The position numbers and the translations under genes are program-made. A stretch of 64,000 nt of DNA from Polyangiales bacterium (GTDB taxonomy: Bacteria; Myxococcota_A; Polyangia; Polyangiales; Ga0077539): contig JBGARZ010000019.1 in NCBI GenBank assembly GCA_044229975.1, positions 64,001-128,000 on the forward strand, in the 5' to 3' direction. The notes beneath the pieces were generated by a model that saw nothing but the letters and a program-made list of their open reading frames with translations, had not been told where the DNA came from and searched no databases. Below are positions 8,335 to 28,021 of this stretch, one piece after another (the first letter of the stretch is position 1; the number at the start of each line of letters is the position of its first letter).

Positions 8335-9573
8335 TCAGTAACCGGGCGGGAGGATGACGCTGGAGAGCGGGACGCGCTGCGCCATGTCGGCCGTCCAGGT
8401 GATGGGGCCGTTGAGGTAGTCGACGTGGAGGTCGGTGTAGCCGCCGAAGTAGCCGGTGCCCGACGGGTCACGCGCGGTGCCCCAGGAGTTCTTGATGCGG
8501 AAGAACTCCACGGTGCCGTAGCGCGCCGCGAGCTCCTGATCGGCCTCGGAGGCGAGCTCACCCGCGCGCAGCGTGCGCTCGGGCTGACCCGGCTGGCGCA
8601 CGACGACCTGGTAGTCCTCCATCGAGGTGAGGTGGCCGCCCTGGCGCCCCGGCGACGTGAGGTTCGACATGCGGAAGACGCCCGTCGATGACATCGCGTT
8701 GAAGTCCACGAGCCAGGAGACGAGCACCGGCTGGTTGTCGTTGAGCGCGCGAATCACGCGCTGCTGGAAGCGCGTGCGCTCCGTCGCGCTGGTCGGGTAC
8801 GAGGCGCTGCGCCACGCGAAGCGGCCGTAGCCCGAGACGTCGGCGAGCGTTCCGTCGAGCTGCTGCGCGCGGCCGTTGCTGTACCGCGACGTGCGCGCCG
8901 GGATGGAGCTGAGCGGGCGGAAGTACCCGTCGGGCGTGGTGCGCGACGACGGGAGCGTGGTGGCGCCGCGCGCGCCGAAGACGCGGGTGATCTCCGCGCG
9001 CACGCTGTCGTTGAGCTGCCACGCGGTGAAGAGCGTCTGGAGGACGAGCGCCGGGTCGCGGCGGGCCGCGGTCGTCGCGAGCGCGCCGCCTTCGTTGAGG
9101 GCGGTGTTGATGGCGCGGAGCGCGTCGGCCTGCCGCGTCGAGCGGTCGATCGTCGCCTCCTCGGGGATGAACTCACCCTCGTACACGACACCGCGCGCAC
9201 GCAGGATGGTCATCGCGCCGTCCCACCAGCCGCCCGTGGGGACCTCCCAGCGGCCCATGGTCTGCGTCGCGCGGCCGCCGGTGATCTTGCCGTACCAGTC
9301 CCAGAAGGTGATCCAGCTCTCGGAGATGTTGATGTCCTGGCCGGTGCGCGCGCGGTGCAGCGACTCGGCCCACCCGGTGGCCGCGTAGGACCAGCAGTTG
9401 CCGATGGACTGGTTGCGCACCGCCGTGTGGTTCACGTCGGTGACGGGCTCGACGTACTCGCCGCTCTCGTCGATGGCCGTAGCTTCGTCCGTGGCGCAGC
9501 CGCTCATCGCGGGGACGGCGAGGGACAGGAAGAGGCCGAGGCGCCAACCGCGGCGCCAGCTTGGGAGGGTCAT
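8335..9573 (-). CDS. Papain-like C1 cysteine peptidase, lipoprotein
   Basis: VRNQSIGNCWSYA (Gln and Cys), GGHL (His), IKNSWG (Asn). Lipobox MSGC; AAGGAG RBS. Confidence 0.85.
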   Translation of the reverse strand: MTLPSWRRGWRLGLFLSLAVPAMSGCATDEATAIDESGEYVEPVTDVNHTAVRNQSIGNCWSYAATGWAESLHRARTGQDINISESWITFWDWYGKITGGRATQTMGRWEVPTGGWWDGAMTILRARGVVYEGEFIPEEATIDRSTRQADALRAINTALNEGGALATTAARRDPALVLQTLFTAWQLNDSVRAEITRVFGARGATTLPSSRTTPDGYFRPLSSIPARTSRYSNGRAQQLDGTLADVSGYGRFAWRSASYPTSATERTRFQQRVIRALNDNQPVLVSWLVDFNAMSSTGVFRMSNLTSPGRQGGHLTSMEDYQVVVRQPGQPERTLRAGELASEADQELAARYGTVEFFRIKNSWGTARDPSGTGYFGGYTDLHVDYLNGPITWTADMAQRVPLSSVILPPGY

Positions 9574-9585
9574 GAACATCACTCC

Positions 9586-11238
9586 TTAGAGGTGGAAGCC
9601 GACGAGCACCGAGGTGTCGATGTTGAAGAGGAAGGTCGGAAACATGAACTGCAACGCGACCTCCGCGCCGACGTGGAAGCCGTTGCGCAGGGCGTACTCG
9701 ACGCGCGCTCCGGCGTGGGCGTTGCCGTAGCCCGAGAGCACGTGCGCGCCGTCGCCCATCACGTTGGCCGGGATGGCGGGCTTGGGCTCGATCTGGCCGA
9801 CGCCGCCGCCCGCGAAGGCGCTGGCGACGAAGCCCTGCGCCGCGAAGCCGTGCGGCGTGAAGGCGTAGTAGAGGCGGGCCATCATCAGCAGGTTGGCGAA
9901 GGGGTTGCTGCGCGCGGTGCCGCCCATGGCGCGCTCCTGGGCGGTGGGCTCGACCGTCCAGTCGGCGCTGTCGGCGAACTGCCAGCGCATGACGATGGCG
10001 GCGCCGATGCGCGGCGTGAAGTTGTAGCGGGCGTTGATGCCGAGGAAGAGCGTCGGCGCGAAGCCCGGGTCGATGGTGGCGTAGCAGACGTAGCCGCTGC
10101 ACGAGCGGATCTGGGTGCCGCTCGACGACTGGAAGTAGCGCTGCTCGGCGTAGGAGGGGCGGCCCGTGAGGAAGGCCGCGCCGACGCCGAAGCTCGCGTC
10201 GAGGGAGAAGCGCGACGTGCGCGGGGCGTTGGGGTCCGTGGGCTCCGACGGACCCGTCTCGCTGCTGGACTCACCTACGGCGCAGGCGCCGGCGTCGCAG
10301 TGCAGGCCGTCGCCGCACCCGCTGTTGGAGCTGCACGGGTCACCGAGGCCGCCGCGCGGCGTGGGTCGCCGGCACTGCGGACCGGTGATGCCGGGCGGGC
10401 ACTCCTCGGCGTCGCTCGCGCAGGTCTCGGACGGCGCGCGGCCGGGGAGCGACGGAGCGGGGTGCGAGCGGCGGCTCACGATGGAGACCTGCACGGGCGA
10501 CGACTCGCTGCCCACCGTGGCGACGACCTGCGTGTTCGCGTCGACGGCGGTGACGTAGTACTCCATCGACGGGGCGATCATCGCGGCGCACGGGATCTCG
10601 GTGCCGTAGCCGTTGGCGGCGCGGGTCATCTCGCGGCGCTCGAAGGAGCGCATGCCGTTGCCCTTGTAATAGACGTAGACGTGCTCGACGGAGAACGTCC
10701 CGCTGGGCTCGACGTAGACGGGCAGCGGGGTGTTGCCGAGCTGCTCGGGCGCGGGCGTGTGGAGGAGCTCACCGCCGCCGGAGCTGGGGTTGTTCACCGG
10801 CCGCGGGTTGGTGGGCGGGGTGGTGATGGGGTTGGGGCGAGCGCCACTGGCGACCTGGCCCTGGGCCGAGCGAAACGCCTGGCTGATCTCCGGGGTGACG
10901 AGCATCGCGTCGGGCTCGGCGTTGGGGTCGAGCCGCAGCGCGCTGACCATCGACTCGACGCCGGCGGTGTTGTTCTGCTGGCCGCCGACCTGCACGATGC
11001 CCATGGCCATGTGGACCTTGGCCGTGACGGCGGGCGAGCAGCCGCTGTTGGCGCAGGTGCGCAGCGCGGCCTGCAGGCGCTCCAGCGACCGGTCGATCTC
11101 GAGGTTCTGGTAGTCCTCCAGCGCGGTGCTGATGAGCGAGCGCGCGGGCCGGTCGCGGGGACCCTGCTGCGCGAGCACTTCAGTCGGGAGAATCACCAGG
11201 GCGGTCAGGAAGACTGCGGTCCGTTGCCAGCTCATCAC
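9586..11238 (-). CDS. Secreted multidomain protein with helical (TPR-like) N-terminus and probable C-terminal outer-membrane beta-barrel
   Basis: Signal peptide, Pro-rich linker, Cys-rich knot, and amphipathic beta-strands ending ...VLVGFHL. Confidence 0.6.
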   Translation of the reverse strand: MMSWQRTAVFLTALVILPTEVLAQQGPRDRPARSLISTALEDYQNLEIDRSLERLQAALRTCANSGCSPAVTAKVHMAMGIVQVGGQQNNTAGVESMVSALRLDPNAEPDAMLVTPEISQAFRSAQGQVASGARPNPITTPPTNPRPVNNPSSGGGELLHTPAPEQLGNTPLPVYVEPSGTFSVEHVYVYYKGNGMRSFERREMTRAANGYGTEIPCAAMIAPSMEYYVTAVDANTQVVATVGSESSPVQVSIVSRRSHPAPSLPGRAPSETCASDAEECPPGITGPQCRRPTPRGGLGDPCSSNSGCGDGLHCDAGACAVGESSSETGPSEPTDPNAPRTSRFSLDASFGVGAAFLTGRPSYAEQRYFQSSSGTQIRSCSGYVCYATIDPGFAPTLFLGINARYNFTPRIGAAIVMRWQFADSADWTVEPTAQERAMGGTARSNPFANLLMMARLYYAFTPHGFAAQGFVASAFAGGGVGQIEPKPAIPANVMGDGAHVLSGYGNAHAGARVEYALRNGFHVGAEVALQFMFPTFLFNIDTSVLVGFHL

Positions 11239-11368: not shown

Positions 11369-12475
11369 TTAGCGGATGAAGCGCCCGTCGGCGTCGATCT
11401 CGTTGAGCTCCACGCGCCGGTTGGCCGCGCGGCCTTCGGGCGTGGTGTTGCTCTCCAGCGGCGTCCGCGGGCCATAGCCACGCGAGGTGAGCCGCGCGGC
11501 GTCGATGCCGTGGGAGAGCAGGTACGTCCGCACCGTGGCGGCGCGGGCGGCCGAGAGTCGCTCGTTGAGCGCGCGCGAACCTTCGCTCGACGTGTGACCG
11601 CCGACCTCGTAGCGGAGCGCGCGGTTTTGCGTCTGCCCGAGGTACTGCACCACCTCGTCGAGGGTGACCGCCGCGGTGGGTCGCAGCGTCGCGCGGTTGA
11701 CGTCGAACTCCACCCGGAAGCGCACCCCATGCTGGGTGATCTGGAGGTGCTCGAACACCCGCGGGCACCCGTTGTTCTCAGGCGGACCAGGCTCGTTGGG
11801 GCACTGGTCGGTGAGGTCGGCGACGGTGTCCTGATCGTTGTCGTTGTCGGGGCAGCCGTCGGCGTCGTTGTACCCGTCGGGGTCTTCCGGCTCGTTGCGG
11901 CAGTTGTCCACCGTGTCGACCACGCCGTCGGCGTCGTTGTCGTTCTCGGGGCAGCCGTCCTCGTCGAGGTACTGATCCCGGTCTTCGGGCTCGATGGGGC
12001 AGAGGTCGCGCGAGTCGACGAGACCGTCGCCGTCGGTGTCCGGATCGTCGGGGCAACCGTCTTCGTCCTGGAAGGAGTTCCAGGTCTCGGGGTTGTCGGG
12101 GCAGCGGTCGTCGGGGTCGAGGTAGCCGTCGCCGTCGCGATCACCGGGCGCCGCGCGCGGCAGGCAGCGGTCGGGCGGCGACATCCGCAGCGCCGCGCGG
12201 GCGTTGAGGTCGGCCTCGTTGAAGTGCTCCTCGGCGCGGCGGAAGTGCGCCTCGTCGAGCTCCCGTTCCGCGAACTCGGCGTGGCTCCGTCCCACCGCGA
12301 GCTCGCGCGGGGCGCACTCGTGGGCGCCGTTGCGCTCGGCCTGCGTGAGCAGCGTGCGGGTCGCGTCGATGCGGCCGCGGAGGCCCGCGGTAGCGGCGCA
12401 GCCCAATAGACTGCTGCAACCCATCACCCCAGCGAGCAGCAGCGCGAGCGGGCGGTGGTCAGTGCGCCGGCGCAT
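11369..12475 (-). CDS. OmpA-family peptidoglycan-binding lipoprotein with DUF4398-like N-terminus and TSP3 Ca-binding repeats
   Basis: Four DxDxDG..D..DxCP repeats. OmpA C-terminal motifs GHTSSEG..NERLSAARA..ANRRVE. Lipobox LLGC. Confidence 0.9.
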   Translation of the reverse strand: MRRRTDHRPLALLLAGVMGCSSLLGCAATAGLRGRIDATRTLLTQAERNGAHECAPRELAVGRSHAEFAERELDEAHFRRAEEHFNEADLNARAALRMSPPDRCLPRAAPGDRDGDGYLDPDDRCPDNPETWNSFQDEDGCPDDPDTDGDGLVDSRDLCPIEPEDRDQYLDEDGCPENDNDADGVVDTVDNCRNEPEDPDGYNDADGCPDNDNDQDTVADLTDQCPNEPGPPENNGCPRVFEHLQITQHGVRFRVEFDVNRATLRPTAAVTLDEVVQYLGQTQNRALRYEVGGHTSSEGSRALNERLSAARAATVRTYLLSHGIDAARLTSRGYGPRTPLESNTTPEGRAANRRVELNEIDADGRFIR

Positions 12476-12764
12476 GACCCTGGCCCCGTGCGATGTCGCG
12501 AGCCCGGTTGCCGTACTCCTCGGCGACCCCGGCCATATCCATGGCGTCTTGATACTCGGCCGAGCTCGCGAACTCCTGGGCCTTGCGCAGGTGCTCGACG
12601 GCGAAGTGGTACTCGTAGGTCGCGCGGGCCGGGGCGCCCGACTGACGGGCCTCCTCGACGGCGTGCTGCGCCCCGGAGAGGTTCACCATGTAGAGCACCG
12701 GGCCACACCCCGAGGCGCCCAGGAGGAGCGAGAGACACCCGACGACGATCGCGAACCGACGCAC
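12459..12764 (-). CDS. DUF4398-like small lipoprotein
   Basis: Lipobox ASGC and AVEEARQSGA..A.YEY..A.EHL.KA pattern. Overlaps the OmpA gene start. Start placed at GTG 12764. Confidence 0.75.
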   Translation of the reverse strand: MRRFAIVVGCLSLLLGASGCGPVLYMVNLSGAQHAVEEARQSGAPARATYEYHFAVEHLRKAQEFASSAEYQDAMDMAGVAEEYGNRARDIARGQGHAPAH

Positions 12765-12837
12765 CGCGCGGACGCTACACGAGCGAAACAAACAGGGTCA
12801 ACGACACACGCAGGGGCGTCGACCGAACGACCGCCAC

Positions 12838-16505: not shown

Positions 16506-16704
16506 TCTGCGAGAAGAACGTGGCCGCGGCAGGCGTACTAGCGACGCACGCTCAACCCCACACCGGCGTCTGTTCTGGTCACGCGGAGCCGACGCCGGCG
16601 CTTCACCACACGGAGGGGGGGACCCCGAGCCGACCAGCGGTTCAGTGTCCGTCATCCGGTTCAACCACCTTGCGCAGTACCAGCGCCCAAGGAGCCCCAC
16701 GCCC

Positions 16705-17160
16705 ATGTCGGACAACACCAAGAAGCCGCCGGTCGTCACCACCCTCACCGAGGACGACATCGTCGAGGAGAACCCGCGTCGGCGGTCGGTCCTCGCGCTG
16801 CTGAGCGCCACCGTCGTCGGAGGCGCCGCCAAGGCGCTCGGCGGGTGCATCGTCGCCAACCCGCAGCCCGTCCAGACGGGCCCGGTCTACGCGCAGCCCC
16901 AGGGGGTCGTCGTGCAGCAGGGAGCCGTCCAGACGGGCGTCACCGACGGTGACTCGGGCGCCTACGCCGACCCGGTCAACGGTGGTCGCGGCCAGCCGCG
17001 CGGCATGCAGACGGGCGTCACCGACGGCGACTCGGGCACCTACTCCGATCCCGTCAACGGCGGCCGTGGTCGCCGCGGCTACCAGACCGGCATCACCGAC
17101 GCCGACTCCGGGTCCTACGCCGACGGCGTCGGGCGCGGCCGCGGCGGCCGTCGCTACTGA
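16705..17160 (+). CDS. Small Tat-type lipoprotein/peptide with three Asp/Gly-rich core repeats; candidate RiPP-like precursor
   Basis: AAGGAG RBS at 16689-16694, ATG 16705. MSDNTKKPPVVTTLTEDDIVEENP-RRRSVLALL...LGGC, then 3x QTG(V/I)TD(G/A)DSGxY(A/S)DxVxxGRG. Confidence 0.8.
   Translation: MSDNTKKPPVVTTLTEDDIVEENPRRRSVLALLSATVVGGAAKALGGCIVANPQPVQTGPVYAQPQGVVVQQGAVQTGVTDGDSGAYADPVNGGRGQPRGMQTGVTDGDSGTYSDPVNGGRGRRGYQTGITDADSGSYADGVGRGRGGRRY
16930..17145 (+). repeat. Three 63-bp coding repeats (21-aa cores)
   Basis: Units start at 16930, 17008 and 17083. Many differences are synonymous, so conservation is at the protein level. Confidence 0.9.
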
Positions 17161-17196
17161 GCGCAGCGCTCCCCCGCCTCTTCTCTCCCCACCGCC

Positions 17197-18390
17197 ATGA
17201 ACCTGTCCTTCCCCACGCTGGCGCGGATCATCGATCCGTTGCCCGTCGAGGTGTTCTTCCGCGACCACTGGGAGCGCGCCCCGCTGGTGCTCCATCGCGA
17301 ACGCCCGCGCGCCTTCGAGGGGCTGCTCTCGCTGGGTGACATCGATCGCTACCTCGGCACCAACGACGTGCACCACCCGTCGGTGTCGCTCGTCGACCAC
17401 CGCCGCAAGATCGCCCCCGAGGAGTACGCGTACCCGAGCGGCCTCGTGGACGCGGTGAAGCTCTTCAAGCTCTACGAGGCGGGCGCCACGATGGTGTTCG
17501 CGCAGCTCGAAGGGAATCACCAGCCGCTGTTCGAGTGTGTGCGCGCGCTGGAGCACGAGTTCAGCACGCGCTTCCAGGCCAACATCTACCTCACGCCGGG
17601 CAACGCCCAGGGCTTCCATCCCCACTACGACAGCCACGACGTCCTCGTGGTGCAGGTCGAGGGAACCAAGCACTGGATGCTCTACGACCAGGTCATCGAC
17701 ACGCCCCTGCGCCGCCAGGAGTTCGACCCGAAGGAGACGGTCTGCGGGCCGCTGTCGCAGGAGTTCGACCTTCACCCTGGTGATGTCCTCTACATCCCGC
17801 GCGGCCTGATGCACGACGCGCGCACCGCCGACGGCGACGGCCACTCGCTGCACGTCACCTTCGGCGCGCTCTTCACGTCTTGGACGGAGCTCATGGCCGA
17901 GGCCCTCGGCCGCTGGGCCCTCACTGACGTGCACGGTCGACGCAGCCTCCCGGCGGGCTTCGCGCGCGACGGCTTCGACGCAGCGGGCGCGCGGTCGTAC
18001 TTCGTGGAGGCGCTCAAGCGCTTCACGGCGGCCGCCGAAGCAGACGCCGACGGTGTGCTCGAACACTTCGCCCGCGACCTCGTCGACACCCGACACCCGC
18101 GACTGCCGGGGCAGTTCTCACAGCTCGCGGGCCTCGGCGCGCTCACGGCCGACCGACCCGTCGGCGTTCGCCCCGGTGTGGTGCTGCGTGTCGATGACGA
18201 CGGTGATCGCGTGATCCTCGCCGCCTACGGAACCGAGCTCGCCTTCCCGTCGCACGTCGCCGCGGCGCTGCGCTTCGCGGTGACCCACGAGCGCTACACC
18301 GCGCGCGACCTCCCGGGGCCGCTCGATGAGGAGGGGCGCCTCGTGCTGGTGCGTCGGCTCATCCGCGAGGGCGTGCTCCAGGCGCTCTGA
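17197..18390 (+). CDS. JmjC/Cupin_4 Fe(II)/2-oxoglutarate oxygenase (YcfD/NO66/MINA-like ROX fold)
   Basis: FFRDHWERAPL, ANIYLTP, FHPHYDSHDV (HxD), QVEGTKHW, PGDVLYIPRGLMHDA (distal His), SLHVT, and C-terminal winged-helix-like LVRRLIREGVL. Confidence 0.92.
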   Translation: MNLSFPTLARIIDPLPVEVFFRDHWERAPLVLHRERPRAFEGLLSLGDIDRYLGTNDVHHPSVSLVDHRRKIAPEEYAYPSGLVDAVKLFKLYEAGATMVFAQLEGNHQPLFECVRALEHEFSTRFQANIYLTPGNAQGFHPHYDSHDVLVVQVEGTKHWMLYDQVIDTPLRRQEFDPKETVCGPLSQEFDLHPGDVLYIPRGLMHDARTADGDGHSLHVTFGALFTSWTELMAEALGRWALTDVHGRRSLPAGFARDGFDAAGARSYFVEALKRFTAAAEADADGVLEHFARDLVDTRHPRLPGQFSQLAGLGALTADRPVGVRPGVVLRVDDDGDRVILAAYGTELAFPSHVAAALRFAVTHERYTARDLPGPLDEEGRLVLVRRLIREGVLQAL

Positions 18391-23094: not shown

Positions 23095-23198
23095 GTCACC
23101 CACCCGTCACGCGCGCCTCACGCCGATGAGCGCGCAGCGTCGACGTCTTGTCGCGATCGCGCCGCGAGACGCTCACTTCGCAACGGTAGTCCTGTCGC
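23095..23198 (+). promoter_or_regulatory. 11-bp-phased (G/C)TC(A/G)C direct-repeat array, Pho-box-like
   Basis: GTCAC 23095, GTCAC 23106, CTCAC 23117, GTCGA 23139, GTCGC 23150, GCCGC 23161, CTCAC 23172, GTCGC 23194. All lie at multiples of 11 bp, upstream of exbB. Confidence 0.55.
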
Positions 23199-23254
23199 CG
23201 CGCAACGAGACCGGCTCATCGGTCAGTCCAAGCGGGGCGCAGACAGGTACTGCC

Positions 23255-24007
23255 ATGCACCGTTTCTCACTGATCAAGCTGTTCACCTCGTTCGCGATGC
23301 TCGGCGCCGAGTGGGTCATGTGGGTGCTCATCGCGCTGTCGTTCGTGACCGTATCAATCATGATCGAGCGGGCCCGGTACTACCGCTCGCTCAACGATGA
23401 CCTCGACACCCTCGCGACCAACTTCGACGCCCACCTCCGCAAGGGCGACCTCACCGCCGCCTCCAAGCTCCTGCGCGCGTCGTCGTCACCCGCCGCGCTC
23501 GTCGCGCTCGCTGGGCTGCGCGAGGTCGCTCGTGGCGCCGACGCCGCCGAGTGCGTGATGGCCGGCACCCTGGCCCGCGTCCGCCGCGAGCTCGAACGTC
23601 GCCTCGCCTTCCTCAACACCGTCGGCAACAACGCCCCCTTCGTCGGGCTCTTCGGCACCGTCATCGGGATCATCCAGGCCTTCGACGCCCTCAAGCCGCC
23701 CGCCGGTCTGCGCGGTGCCGCCGCTGCGGCCGCCGCCGCCGCCAACACCGGCCGCGTGATGGGAACCATCGCCGAAGCCCTCGTCGCCACGGCCATCGGG
23801 CTGCTCGTCGCGATTCCCTCGGTGGCCGCGTACAACCTCTTCCAACGCCGCATCAAGTCGATGCTCACGGACACCGAGGCGCTCACCCAGCTCGTGCTGG
23901 CCTACGCGCACGCGCCCATCGCACCGGCCGCCTCGGCGGTCGCCCCGGCGCCGCTCACCAACGGCCACGCCGTCGCCGCCACCTCCACCTCCGCGCAGGC
24001 GAGCTGA
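23255..24007 (+). CDS. exbB: MotA/TolQ/ExbB proton-channel protein
   Basis: NAPFVGLFGTVIGII and IAEALVATAIGLLVAIP. Start trimmed to ATG 23255. Confidence 0.92.
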   Translation: MHRFSLIKLFTSFAMLGAEWVMWVLIALSFVTVSIMIERARYYRSLNDDLDTLATNFDAHLRKGDLTAASKLLRASSSPAALVALAGLREVARGADAAECVMAGTLARVRRELERRLAFLNTVGNNAPFVGLFGTVIGIIQAFDALKPPAGLRGAAAAAAAAANTGRVMGTIAEALVATAIGLLVAIPSVAAYNLFQRRIKSMLTDTEALTQLVLAYAHAPIAPAASAVAPAPLTNGHAVAATSTSAQAS

Positions 24008-24011
24008 GACC

Positions 24012-24430
<419 letters not shown>

Positions 24431-24434
<4 letters not shown>

Positions 24435-25237
24435 ACGCCCCCGCCCCCATCGACGACGCCGACGAACTCGCCGGGAGCTCCGTCTTCCGCAAGCCGCCGG
24501 GGCGTGTGTGGGTCGTCTCCTTCGCGGCCCACGCGGCGGTCTTCGCCGTGCTCGGCGTCGTCGGAACCTTCATCGGCGTGAAGACCGGCTTCATCCCGCC
24601 GACCATCATCGAGCTCGAAGCGCCGCCCCCGCCGCGCCGCCCGCTGCCGCCGCCCGTCGCGCCACCGCCGCGCCCCACGGCGCCAGAGGCCACGGCGCCC
24701 CGCGCCCCGCGTCCTGCCAACCGTCCCGCCAACAACGCCGCGCGCCCCGGTCGCGCCGCCGCGCCGCACGTGCTCGCCGCGCAGGGCAACGGCCCCGGCA
24801 ACGGCGACGAGATGCCCGTCGGTGACAACAACGACTTCCAGGGCGGCGTCGTCGGCAACGGTGGCGGTGGCGCCGTGGAGACTCCGCGGCCTGCGCCCGA
24901 ACCCGAGCCCGAGCCATCGGTACACGCCGGGACGGGTCGTCGTGGCCCCGTACAGATTCCGGAGGAGGCCGTACCACCGGTCGCGGTCGATCGACCGATG
25001 CCGGCGTACCCCGAAGGTGCGCGGCGCAGCGGGGTGCAGGCCGAGGTCGTCGCCCGCGTGGTCGTCGACGAGGACGGCTCCGTGAGCGCGGTGGAGATCC
25101 TCCGCGGGCACCCCGACTTCGACACCCTCGTGCGCGAGGTGCTGCGTCGCTGGCGCTTCCAGCCGGCCACCATCGATGGCCACGCGCTCGCCGTCTACCA
25201 GATCGTCCGTGTCCCCTTCCGCCTCGAAAACCTCTGA
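24431..25237 (+). CDS. tonB: Energy transducer TonB
   Basis: N-terminal TM with SxxxH, Pro-rich linker, PAYPEGARRSGVQ and WRFQPA. Confidence 0.9.
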
Positions 25238-25249
25238 CGGAAGTCCCTC

Positions 25250-28021
<2,772 letters not shown>

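Follow-up and report, generated by a model that had tools for sequence, protein, structure and literature searches.

Which substrate is used by a JmjC oxygenase whose gene directly follows that of a small peptide made of Asp-rich repeats? The question is raised by a locus within a 64,000-nt stretch of DNA (the window) from a Polyangiales bacterium, assembly GCA_044229975.1, contig JBGARZ010000019.1, positions 64,001-128,000, forward strand. Here the gene for a precursor-like peptide, P0001, precedes that for a NO66/MINA-like oxygenase, P0002. The two genes are adjacent, co-inherited and both intact, and they form a real, widespread two-gene system, in which the enzyme very probably modifies the peptide. 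The reading adopted, which is considered probable by a small measure, is that the JmjC enzyme binds the peptide leader via a domain of the RiPP recognition element (RRE) type (RiPP, ribosomally synthesised and post-translationally modified peptide) and beta-hydroxylates Asp in each D-x-D repeat, leaving an intact lipoprotein of the twin-arginine translocation (Tat) route whose looped repeats bind metal.

Organization of the gene pair

The host genome measures 10 Mb, with about 71% G+C, and the named close homologues belong to Polyangiales/Myxococcales-type deltaproteobacteria. The elements of the pair are listed below by window position.

16689-16694, plus strand: Shine-Dalgarno-like AAGGAG, 10 nt ahead of the peptide ATG (sequence)
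16705-17160, plus strand: precursor-like repeat peptide P0001, 151 aa (sequence, homologues, AlphaFold2 (AF2) model)
16741-16770, plus strand: acidic leader TLTEDDIVEE, residues 13-22, predicted RRE recognition sequence (leader logo)
16777-16848, plus strand: twin-arginine signal, with RRRSVL from residue 25, hydrophobic helix and lipobox LGG-C48 (LGGC, 45-48)
16849-16929, plus strand: Gln/Pro/Val-rich linker from the lipobox Cys to the repeats (sequence; homologues differ in length)
16930-16992, plus strand: repeat 1, residues 76-96 (D81, D83, D89)
17008-17070, plus strand: repeat 2, residues 102-122
17083-17145, plus strand: repeat 3, residues 127-147
17197-18390, plus strand: NO66/MINA-like Fe(II)/2-oxoglutarate JmjC oxygenase P0002, 397 aa (Pfam, PDB search, AF2 fold)
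17560-17889, plus strand: JmjC barrel, with metal ligands H143, D145, H206, 2-oxoglutarate site K158, T133, Y131 and pocket signature Q127, H147, G223
18184-18387, plus strand: C-terminal winged-helix or RRE-type domain, with three strands ahead of the helices (AF2 secondary structure)
18322-18372, plus strand: basic last helix LDxxGxxxLxRRLxREG (motif tracks the leader)

A preceding sequence-only reading had described a 151-aa open reading frame (ORF) with its own ribosome-binding site, an acidic segment before a twin-arginine signal, three 21-aa cores with Arg/Gly-rich spacers and, 36 bp downstream, a JmjC enzyme with an intact HxD...H triad and a C-terminal winged helix. Each of these elements was found again at the positions given, the triad as H143-D145...H206 and the winged helix in the AF2 model; the JmjC ORF starts 36 nt past the peptide stop. 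Six same-genus loci likewise have a purine box of this kind ahead of the ATG. A scan for sigma-70 promoters and terminators detected none, and among RNA runs no holder was listed.

Conservation of the pair

The peptide gene lies directly upstream of the enzyme gene in 18 of 18 loci of the closest enzyme orthologues, apparently frameshifted in one of them, and is placed divergently at two further orthologues. Of 41 related genomes, 23 carry the enzyme and 23 the peptide; 22 have both and 17 have neither. The exceptions are one genome (G015), 77% complete and with the peptide at a contig end, and another (G036), which contains three enzymes with a different pocket.

A pattern scan of GTDB returned 79 loci with flanks, 66 of which feature a peptide detected by regular expression. 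The enzyme is located within 5 kb of the peptide in 27 of these 66; the genomes behind 38 of the other 39 carry it elsewhere in 34 cases out of 35 (E<1e-126), the remaining one being a false peptide call. Twelve loci had no peptide by regular expression: two of them turned out to contain real peptides, and their genomes carry the enzyme; the other ten were chance matches, with nothing better than 4e-71. When metagenome enzyme loci with at least 700 nt of upstream sequence were evaluated, 58 of 63 had a peptide, 57 by hidden Markov model and one by inspection. A leader-bearing peptide was also found at 27 of 28 actinobacterial enzyme loci, in agreement with the mention, in the sequence-only reading, of LxDDI-leader acidic peptides beside such enzymes in other phyla. 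The conserved repeat-peptide neighbour which that reading had proposed to look for beside enzyme homologues was thus found.

All-against-all clustering of the neighbours revealed no other neighbour common to different groups, and no protease linked to the Tat-type pair. The enzyme-peptide pair alone is retained in four of four other-genus loci. Neighbours encoding MOSC, FGE-sulfatase-domain, methyltransferase, gamma-glutamyltransferase and TonB proteins were evaluated as parts of the system and discarded, reflecting same-genus synteny only. One locus (L076) was ruled out as a family peptide on inspection.

Other arrangements were also observed. A second pair of the same type is present on another contig of the host (C39; L039, L336), composed of a 132-aa peptide (G000:C39:292371-292769), with a GTG start, leader, twin Arg, AEA-C site and Cys-flanked repeats, and of a JmjC paralogue at 291175-292344, of 36% identity. 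In a third host system (G000:C23:338586-336438, L206), a signal-less RDADGTD-repeat peptide, the N-terminus of which is different, accompanies a JmjC enzyme whose last helix also differs; a sucrase/ferredoxin-like gene (PF06999) completes the three-gene layout found in actinobacteria. In Parasphingopyxis and Maricaulis loci (L077, L091, L084, L097), three to five leaderless repeat-peptide genes stand ahead of one enzyme, and in many Sphingomonadales genomes single peptide genes are scattered far from it. Finally, locus L208 (G036:C521:3500-10950) contains three tandem NO66-like JmjC genes, a PCMT (isoaspartate methyltransferase-like) gene and a Cupin_8 JmjC gene; no precursor was found in this stretch, which stops at the contig end.

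The repeat peptide family

Homologues of the peptide number 82 by word search, and 878 clusters at 50% identity by profile search, from Myxococcota-type bacteria and Alphaproteobacteria (Rhodobacterales, Sphingomonadales, Maricaulaceae). Alignment of 777 units from 222 proteins defines the repeat as [TS]-G-[LIVC]-[TS]-D-x-D-x-G-x-x-x-D-P-x-G-x-G-R-G. The three core positions are Asp in 603, 600 and 602 of 607 units, with Glu found once, and 72% of units have Pro behind the third Asp. A test for a leader plus Asp repeats was positive in 33 of 500 random windows of the host genome; the corresponding figures for enzyme loci were 45 of 63 (metagenome) and 27 of 28 (actinobacterial). The number of homologues, the invariant Asp and the scarcity in random windows argue against a chance ORF.

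The peptide and its repeats fall into no Pfam or NCBIfam family (P0001 and 47 relatives on Pfam), no relative was detected in viral contigs, and a search of the ESM Atlas gave no match at 0.9 or above and no named family. The repeats differ from thrombospondin type 3 or DxDxDG calcium repeats in having Gly at position 5, and no Pfam match to such repeats was obtained for P0001 and the same 47 relatives. AF2 predicts P0001 to be disordered (pLDDT 50, pTM 0.13), the signal helix alone being formed.

The features of a Tat lipoprotein are recognizable in the sequence, i.e. twin Arg, hydrophobic helix and lipobox Cys, as well as a translocase in the host genome, where TatC is present; export is a prediction. 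The twin Arg R26 R27 is invariant in two alignments (67/67 and 93/93). A lipobox-like Cys is found in 83 of 120 leader-bearing members, the others having an Ala-x-Ala site, sometimes in tandem with the first type at one locus. A second Cys follows the Gly-Arg in 104 of 108 units preceded by Cys, against 16 of 653 otherwise, in 53 proteins which are not independent of each other. Because of these flanking Cys pairs, the two ends of a unit probably lie close to each other in an oxidising compartment, the unit being closed to a loop by a disulfide; the repeats of P0001 itself have no Cys. One family peptide of the 47 scanned, P0086, is fused to a C-terminal peptidoglycan-binding domain (PF01471).

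The oxygenase

The enzyme matches the Pfam family JmjC_2 (PF08007, E 1.3e-27). A PDB sequence search returned NO66 and MINA first (E about 1e-31), then YxbC (1e-12) and, last, YcfD (4e-5). The AF2 model, built on 37 sequences, has a pLDDT of 94.5 and aligns with NO66 along the entire chain (Foldseek TM 0.74). In the VIA fold comparison, NO66 (4diq) scores Z 32.0, with a root-mean-square deviation of 4.7 over 385 residues, followed by MINA (Z 27.0) and YcfD (Z 19.2); the whole-model search is dominated by the JmjC barrel and says nothing on the RRE-type domain by itself. The architecture of the ribosomal oxygenases (ROX), i.e. JmjC barrel, helical dimerisation region and C-terminal winged helix, can be recognized in the model. 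The iron triad H143, D145, H206 is present in 96 of 96 enzymes and K158 in 95 of 96. The enzyme has no export signal of its own.

The sequence-only reading had taken the two genes as a dedicated pair and the enzyme as something other than a YcfD orthologue. Both views held: E. coli YcfD shares 23% identity with the enzyme over 193 residues, the best structural matches are NO66 and MINA, and the pairing is conserved. In the tree that it had called for, YcfD falls outside the enzyme family, on a long branch, and the enzyme does not cluster with it; this is a quick-search tree, in which the placement of YcfD is a long-branch join, of 97 rows (12 labelled by hand and 12 without a label), NO66, MINA, PhaI and BipG not being among them. 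No close orthologue of YcfD is present in the host genome, where the best match has E 1e-8.

The C-terminal domain is predicted, in the AF2 model, to consist of strands 330-334, 338-343 and 346-351 and helices 352-363 and 378-390, with a short turn at 369-371. RREs are described as having three strands and then helices, the cleft for the leader being located at strand 3 and helix 3 (PMC12710340; for this and the other articles cited by number, statements refer to the part of the article that was available). The modelled strand-strand-strand-helix order fits this three-strand, three-helix type. None of 37 family enzymes matched a Pfam winged-helix model, and a PDB sequence search with the 80-aa C-terminal domain gave nothing significant.

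Leader and enzyme vary together

The leader has the consensus T-L-x-D-x-D/E-I-x-T (logo of 120 leaders); in 101 of these, the Leu precedes the twin Arg by 12-14 residues. It also heads Tat peptides with Lys-rich (Q/S)DPDK repeats, located beside the same enzyme on metagenome contigs (L232-L287), and, at 27 of 28 loci in actinobacteria, signal-less peptides with DADGTD or ADGG repeats. Since these last peptides have no signal, the leader is not merely part of an export signal. A conserved leader placed on separate cores (GRG, DPD and DADGTD repeats), next to a co-encoded and co-inherited putative maturase, is what is found in RiPPs.

The last-helix motif LDxxGxxxLxRRLxREG was found by script in 41 of 43 leader-paired enzymes, the two misses being anchor errors with the motif present, in 28 of 28 actinobacterial enzymes, the partners of which have a leader and no signal, and in none of 40 enzymes paired with leaderless peptides. 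Charges are reversed in enzyme and peptide alike: for leader-paired versus leaderless-paired members they are +2.6 versus -0.1 in the last helix and -2.4 versus +1.9 in the N-region of the peptide. The link between acidic leader and enzyme, foreseen by the sequence-only reading, is therefore retained as regards the helix of the winged-helix/RRE domain that tracks the leader; it is not universal, as 41 enzymes of one alphaproteobacterial clade pair with leaderless peptides. Binding of the leader by the RRE-type domain is a reasoned inference.

Two other explanations can be weighed here. Tat can co-export partner proteins, and the peptide might be a carrier taking the oxygenase, which lacks a signal, to the periplasm for envelope substrates. 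This is judged highly improbable: the leader precedes the twin Arg, in a part which is kept cytoplasmic and cut off, actinobacterial peptides have the leader and no signal, and the invariant repeats would be left unexplained by carriage.

Alternatively, the peptide could be an unmodified Asp-rich envelope protein binding Ca or other metals, with an oxygenase which is co-regulated, or held by the leader, and acts elsewhere, e.g. on a ribosomal protein. The D-x-D...D spacing resembles that of calcium loops, the enzyme fold is that of the ribosomal oxygenases, the automatic JGI annotation names several homologues 'ribosomal protein L16 Arg81 hydroxylase', the host has no close YcfD orthologue, and many peptide genes are distant from the enzyme gene. 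The distribution is, however, patchy and strictly joint; two separate GRG-type pairs and a DADGTD pair coexist in one genome; the same leader is found on unrelated repeats, with and without a signal; and it also heads a short peptide containing His, next to a relative whose pocket differs (Trp127, Ala147). Only a small chance is left to this explanation. That last peptide (L215:4273-4467, G019:C10) lies upstream of its JmjC gene; besides the LxDxD leader, it has another leader-like segment, which ends in Ala-Gly, and a His-containing tail of 11 residues. It is a more classical RiPP-like precursor, probably with a different chemistry.

The target residue

If the peptide is modified, as the adopted reading has it, Asp is the likely target on the evidence of conservation, being the sole invariant residue common to all repeat types (GRG, DPD, DADGTD). 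Among 23 DPD-type peptides, 11 have no Arg, 16 no His and 11 no Asn; 24 of 25 GRG-type peptides have no Lys; and DADGTD repeats contain 2.5% Pro and 2.4% Arg. In the enzymes, Q127, N129, Y131, H147, H219, T221 and G223 are fully conserved throughout a set of 108 (27 DPD-type, 53 other metagenome, 28 actinobacterial). Since Asp alone is invariant across repeat types and the pocket is fixed, beta-hydroxylation of Asp is the best inference. The sequence-only reading had named Asp, or else Arg or Asn: the first choice is favoured by conservation, and the other two now appear to be poor candidates, Arg in particular being unlikely. Relatives with Trp127 and Tyr or Ala at 147 have no Asp-repeat partners.

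Characterised relatives hold their substrates in other ways. R. marinus YcfD binds its target Arg via D118, M120, Y137 and S208 (PMC5862942), the positions of which correspond to about Q127, N129, H147 and T221 in the family. NO66 holds His via Tyr328 and Ser421 (PMC9994133). The Tyr of NO66 is retained in the family. The position of the Ser is Gly, by a hand count on the PDB alignment anchored on a residue which we take to be His405.

The enzyme might still modify another residue of the peptide, such as the Arg of GRG, as in YcfD, or the Pro of DP, the target being set by subfamily. Gly-Arg is as invariant as Asp in the GRG repeat type, the characterised relatives act on Arg, His or ornithine, and Pro stands behind the third Asp in most units. 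Against this, an identical pocket is found in enzymes whose partner repeats have no Arg or Lys, Gln replaces the Arg-binding Asp of YcfD, and DADGTD repeats are nearly free of Pro and Arg. Modification of another residue is accordingly regarded as rather improbable.

Proposed maturation and its product

In the adopted reading, hydroxylation of Asp in each repeat would proceed as follows. The leader would dock on the RRE-type domain at strand 3 and helix 3, the acidic leader facing the basic helix. Fe(II)/2-oxoglutarate/O2 chemistry in the cytoplasm would then add 16 Da at C3 of at least one Asp per repeat; a disordered chain exported by Tat would leave time for this step. As the leader lies at a fixed distance from the twin Arg, the bound enzyme may delay export until the peptide is modified, a role for which Tat proofreading chaperones offer a parallel. 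After export, predicted from the sequence, Cys48 would be lipidated and signal peptidase II would cut off leader and signal together, so that no dedicated protease would be needed; the members having an Ala-x-Ala site would end up soluble in the periplasm.

In the last and weakest step, the beta-hydroxy-Asp loops would chelate Fe(III), or a similar hard cation such as Ca or a lanthanide, in the envelope. Beta-hydroxy-Asp is an established Fe(III) ligand (PMC10391617), and metal binding is for this reason the simplest purpose that can be proposed. An intact envelope protein is favoured over released cores because of the absence of a linked protease, the lipobox, the Cys loops and the peptidoglycan-binding fusion. 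Release of single cores by a protease, suggested in the sequence-only reading, found no support.

A different outcome is that Asp is oxidised without yielding a stable beta-hydroxy-Asp ligand, through desaturation, decarboxylation, backbone scission or cross-linking, or that the repeats are cut to signalling or antimicrobial peptides. FIH desaturates as well as hydroxylates (PMC9994133), the Arg/Gly spacers look protease-sensitive, and an extra sucrase/ferredoxin-like gene is present in actinobacterial versions and in the host C23 locus. The Tat type, on the other hand, has neither a protease nor a second enzyme linked to it, and the lipobox, the paired Cys loops and the P0086 fusion point to an intact envelope protein. 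This outcome is thought unlikely, with some real chance left to it.

Several observations weigh against the proposed beta-hydroxylation of Asp in a leader-bound Tat peptide. Leaderless peptides still pair with the enzyme, and on the tree the acidic leader and the basic helix were lost together a single time, which counts as one observation. Mutual information between residues of 112 leader-enzyme pairs (effective number 62) gives no clear signal in the RRE domain, where 12 of the top 50 pairs are placed, with 10 expected; seven fall in strand 3 and helix 3, with 3.3 expected. The winged helix is also found in NO66, MINA and YcfD, which act on ribosomal proteins. Gln occupies the strand position of the YcfD Asp in 90 of 96 enzymes in a register which is uncertain by one residue, and Arg172, evaluated as a universal carboxylate binder, was rejected, being present in just 33% of DPD-type enzymes. 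No peptide was found nearby at 5 of the 63 metagenome enzyme loci. P0001 does not match TIGR01409, which its relatives match weakly. Finally, no metal-uptake gene is linked to the pair, a TonB cluster being present in two of four same-genus and none of four other-genus stretches.

A broader version can be formulated, tentatively and with doubtful prospects: a widespread, undescribed RiPP class in which a Tat signal has an RRE recognition sequence incorporated at its front, the hydroxylase retains the precursor until modification, export being thereby gated by maturation, and poly-beta-hydroxyaspartate in the envelope is the tethered ribosomal counterpart of a siderophore, the winged helix of human NO66 and MINA, the nearest enzymes in structure, being a leader-binding RRE by descent.

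Comparison with known systems

ROX enzymes (NO66, MINA53, YcfD/RoxA, B. subtilis YxbC) have in common a three-part fold and the HxD...H triad. Here, by contrast, the substrate appears to be a co-encoded, exported repeat peptide, and the last helix is basic and tracks the leader. Neither the Arg-binding acidic residue of the YcfD/RoxA L16-Arg81 hydroxylases nor orthology to them was found, and Gly at the position of the NO66 Ser marks a difference from that enzyme.

JmjC/PF08007 hydroxylases adding 16 Da to RiPP precursors are known: PhaI of phaeornamide, acting on a co-encoded ribosomal precursor (PMC8784127), and, for the biphenomycins, BipG (PMC12707348) and BpmG/PbsQ (PMC12257519). These enzymes, compared by description only, target ornithine and belong to multi-enzyme clusters with proteases or transporters, whereas a single enzyme, multi-repeat Asp cores and a Tat/lipoprotein signal are found here. 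A Cupin_JmjC_RRE model (RREFam042) is listed in PMC12710340, along with bacterial homologues of eukaryotic JmjC-RRE proteins in RiPP-like contexts; its available text names no such precursor, leader motif, export signal or chemistry, and its figures and data sets may include pairs of the present kind.

Bufferins (PMC11626156) resemble the proposed system in their general export signal, cytoplasmic modification, metal binding in the envelope and removal of the leader by signal peptidase. They differ in using Sec, an MNIO (DUF692) with DUF2063, Cys cores and copper, and their signal is dispensable for modification; the pair described here has a Tat signal, a distinct conserved leader ahead of it, and no MNIO or DUF2063 among the conserved neighbours. 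Beta-hydroxyaspartate siderophores such as the tistrellabactins (PMC10391617) would have the same ligand, an alpha-hydroxycarboxylate for Fe(III). They are, however, secreted small molecules with receptors, made by non-ribosomal peptide synthetases and classical beta-hydroxylases, whereas the peptides reported here are ribosomal, repeated, predicted to be retained in the envelope and without a linked receptor.

For bacterial MINA/NO66 proteins, the available part of PMC2938197 gives other neighbourhoods, not this pairing, and that of bioRxiv 10.64898/2026.10.04.756588 mentions JmjC just in passing. In a literature search that covered few subscription papers, no LxDxDI-leader, Asp-repeat, Tat-exported precursor with such an enzyme was found described, and the two-gene system is apparently undescribed. 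On sequence grounds, it would work like a RiPP enzyme-precursor pair with a ROX-fold enzyme that is not a YcfD orthologue; its membership in the RiPPs is provisional.

Neighbouring genes in the window

On the plus strand, 4.7 kb downstream of the pair, a cluster at 23126-28021 encodes ExbB, ExbD, TonB and a TonB-dependent receptor. On the minus strand, 11369-12791 encodes a DUF4398 lipoprotein and then an OmpA-family protein with Asp-rich thrombospondin type 3 repeats, and 8335-11238 a predicted papain-like C1 peptidase lipoprotein (weak Pfam match, E 3e-4), adjoining a 550-aa secreted protein with no Pfam match.

Implications

The pair provides a candidate substrate for a large bacterial NO66-like family, the members of which are now annotated as hypothetical proteins or L16 hydroxylases. 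Cultured hosts of the family include Parasphingopyxis lamellibrachiae DSM 26725, Rhodophyticola porphyridii and Roseicyclus persicicus. If the adopted reading is true, Asp would join the residues hydroxylated by the ROX fold, and a two-gene route would exist to multi-site beta-hydroxy-Asp peptides, of possible use for metal capture and for lanthanide or iron binding. The LxDxDI leader would be portable and usable with unrelated cores, and a function would be offered for the winged-helix domain of the ROX enzymes.

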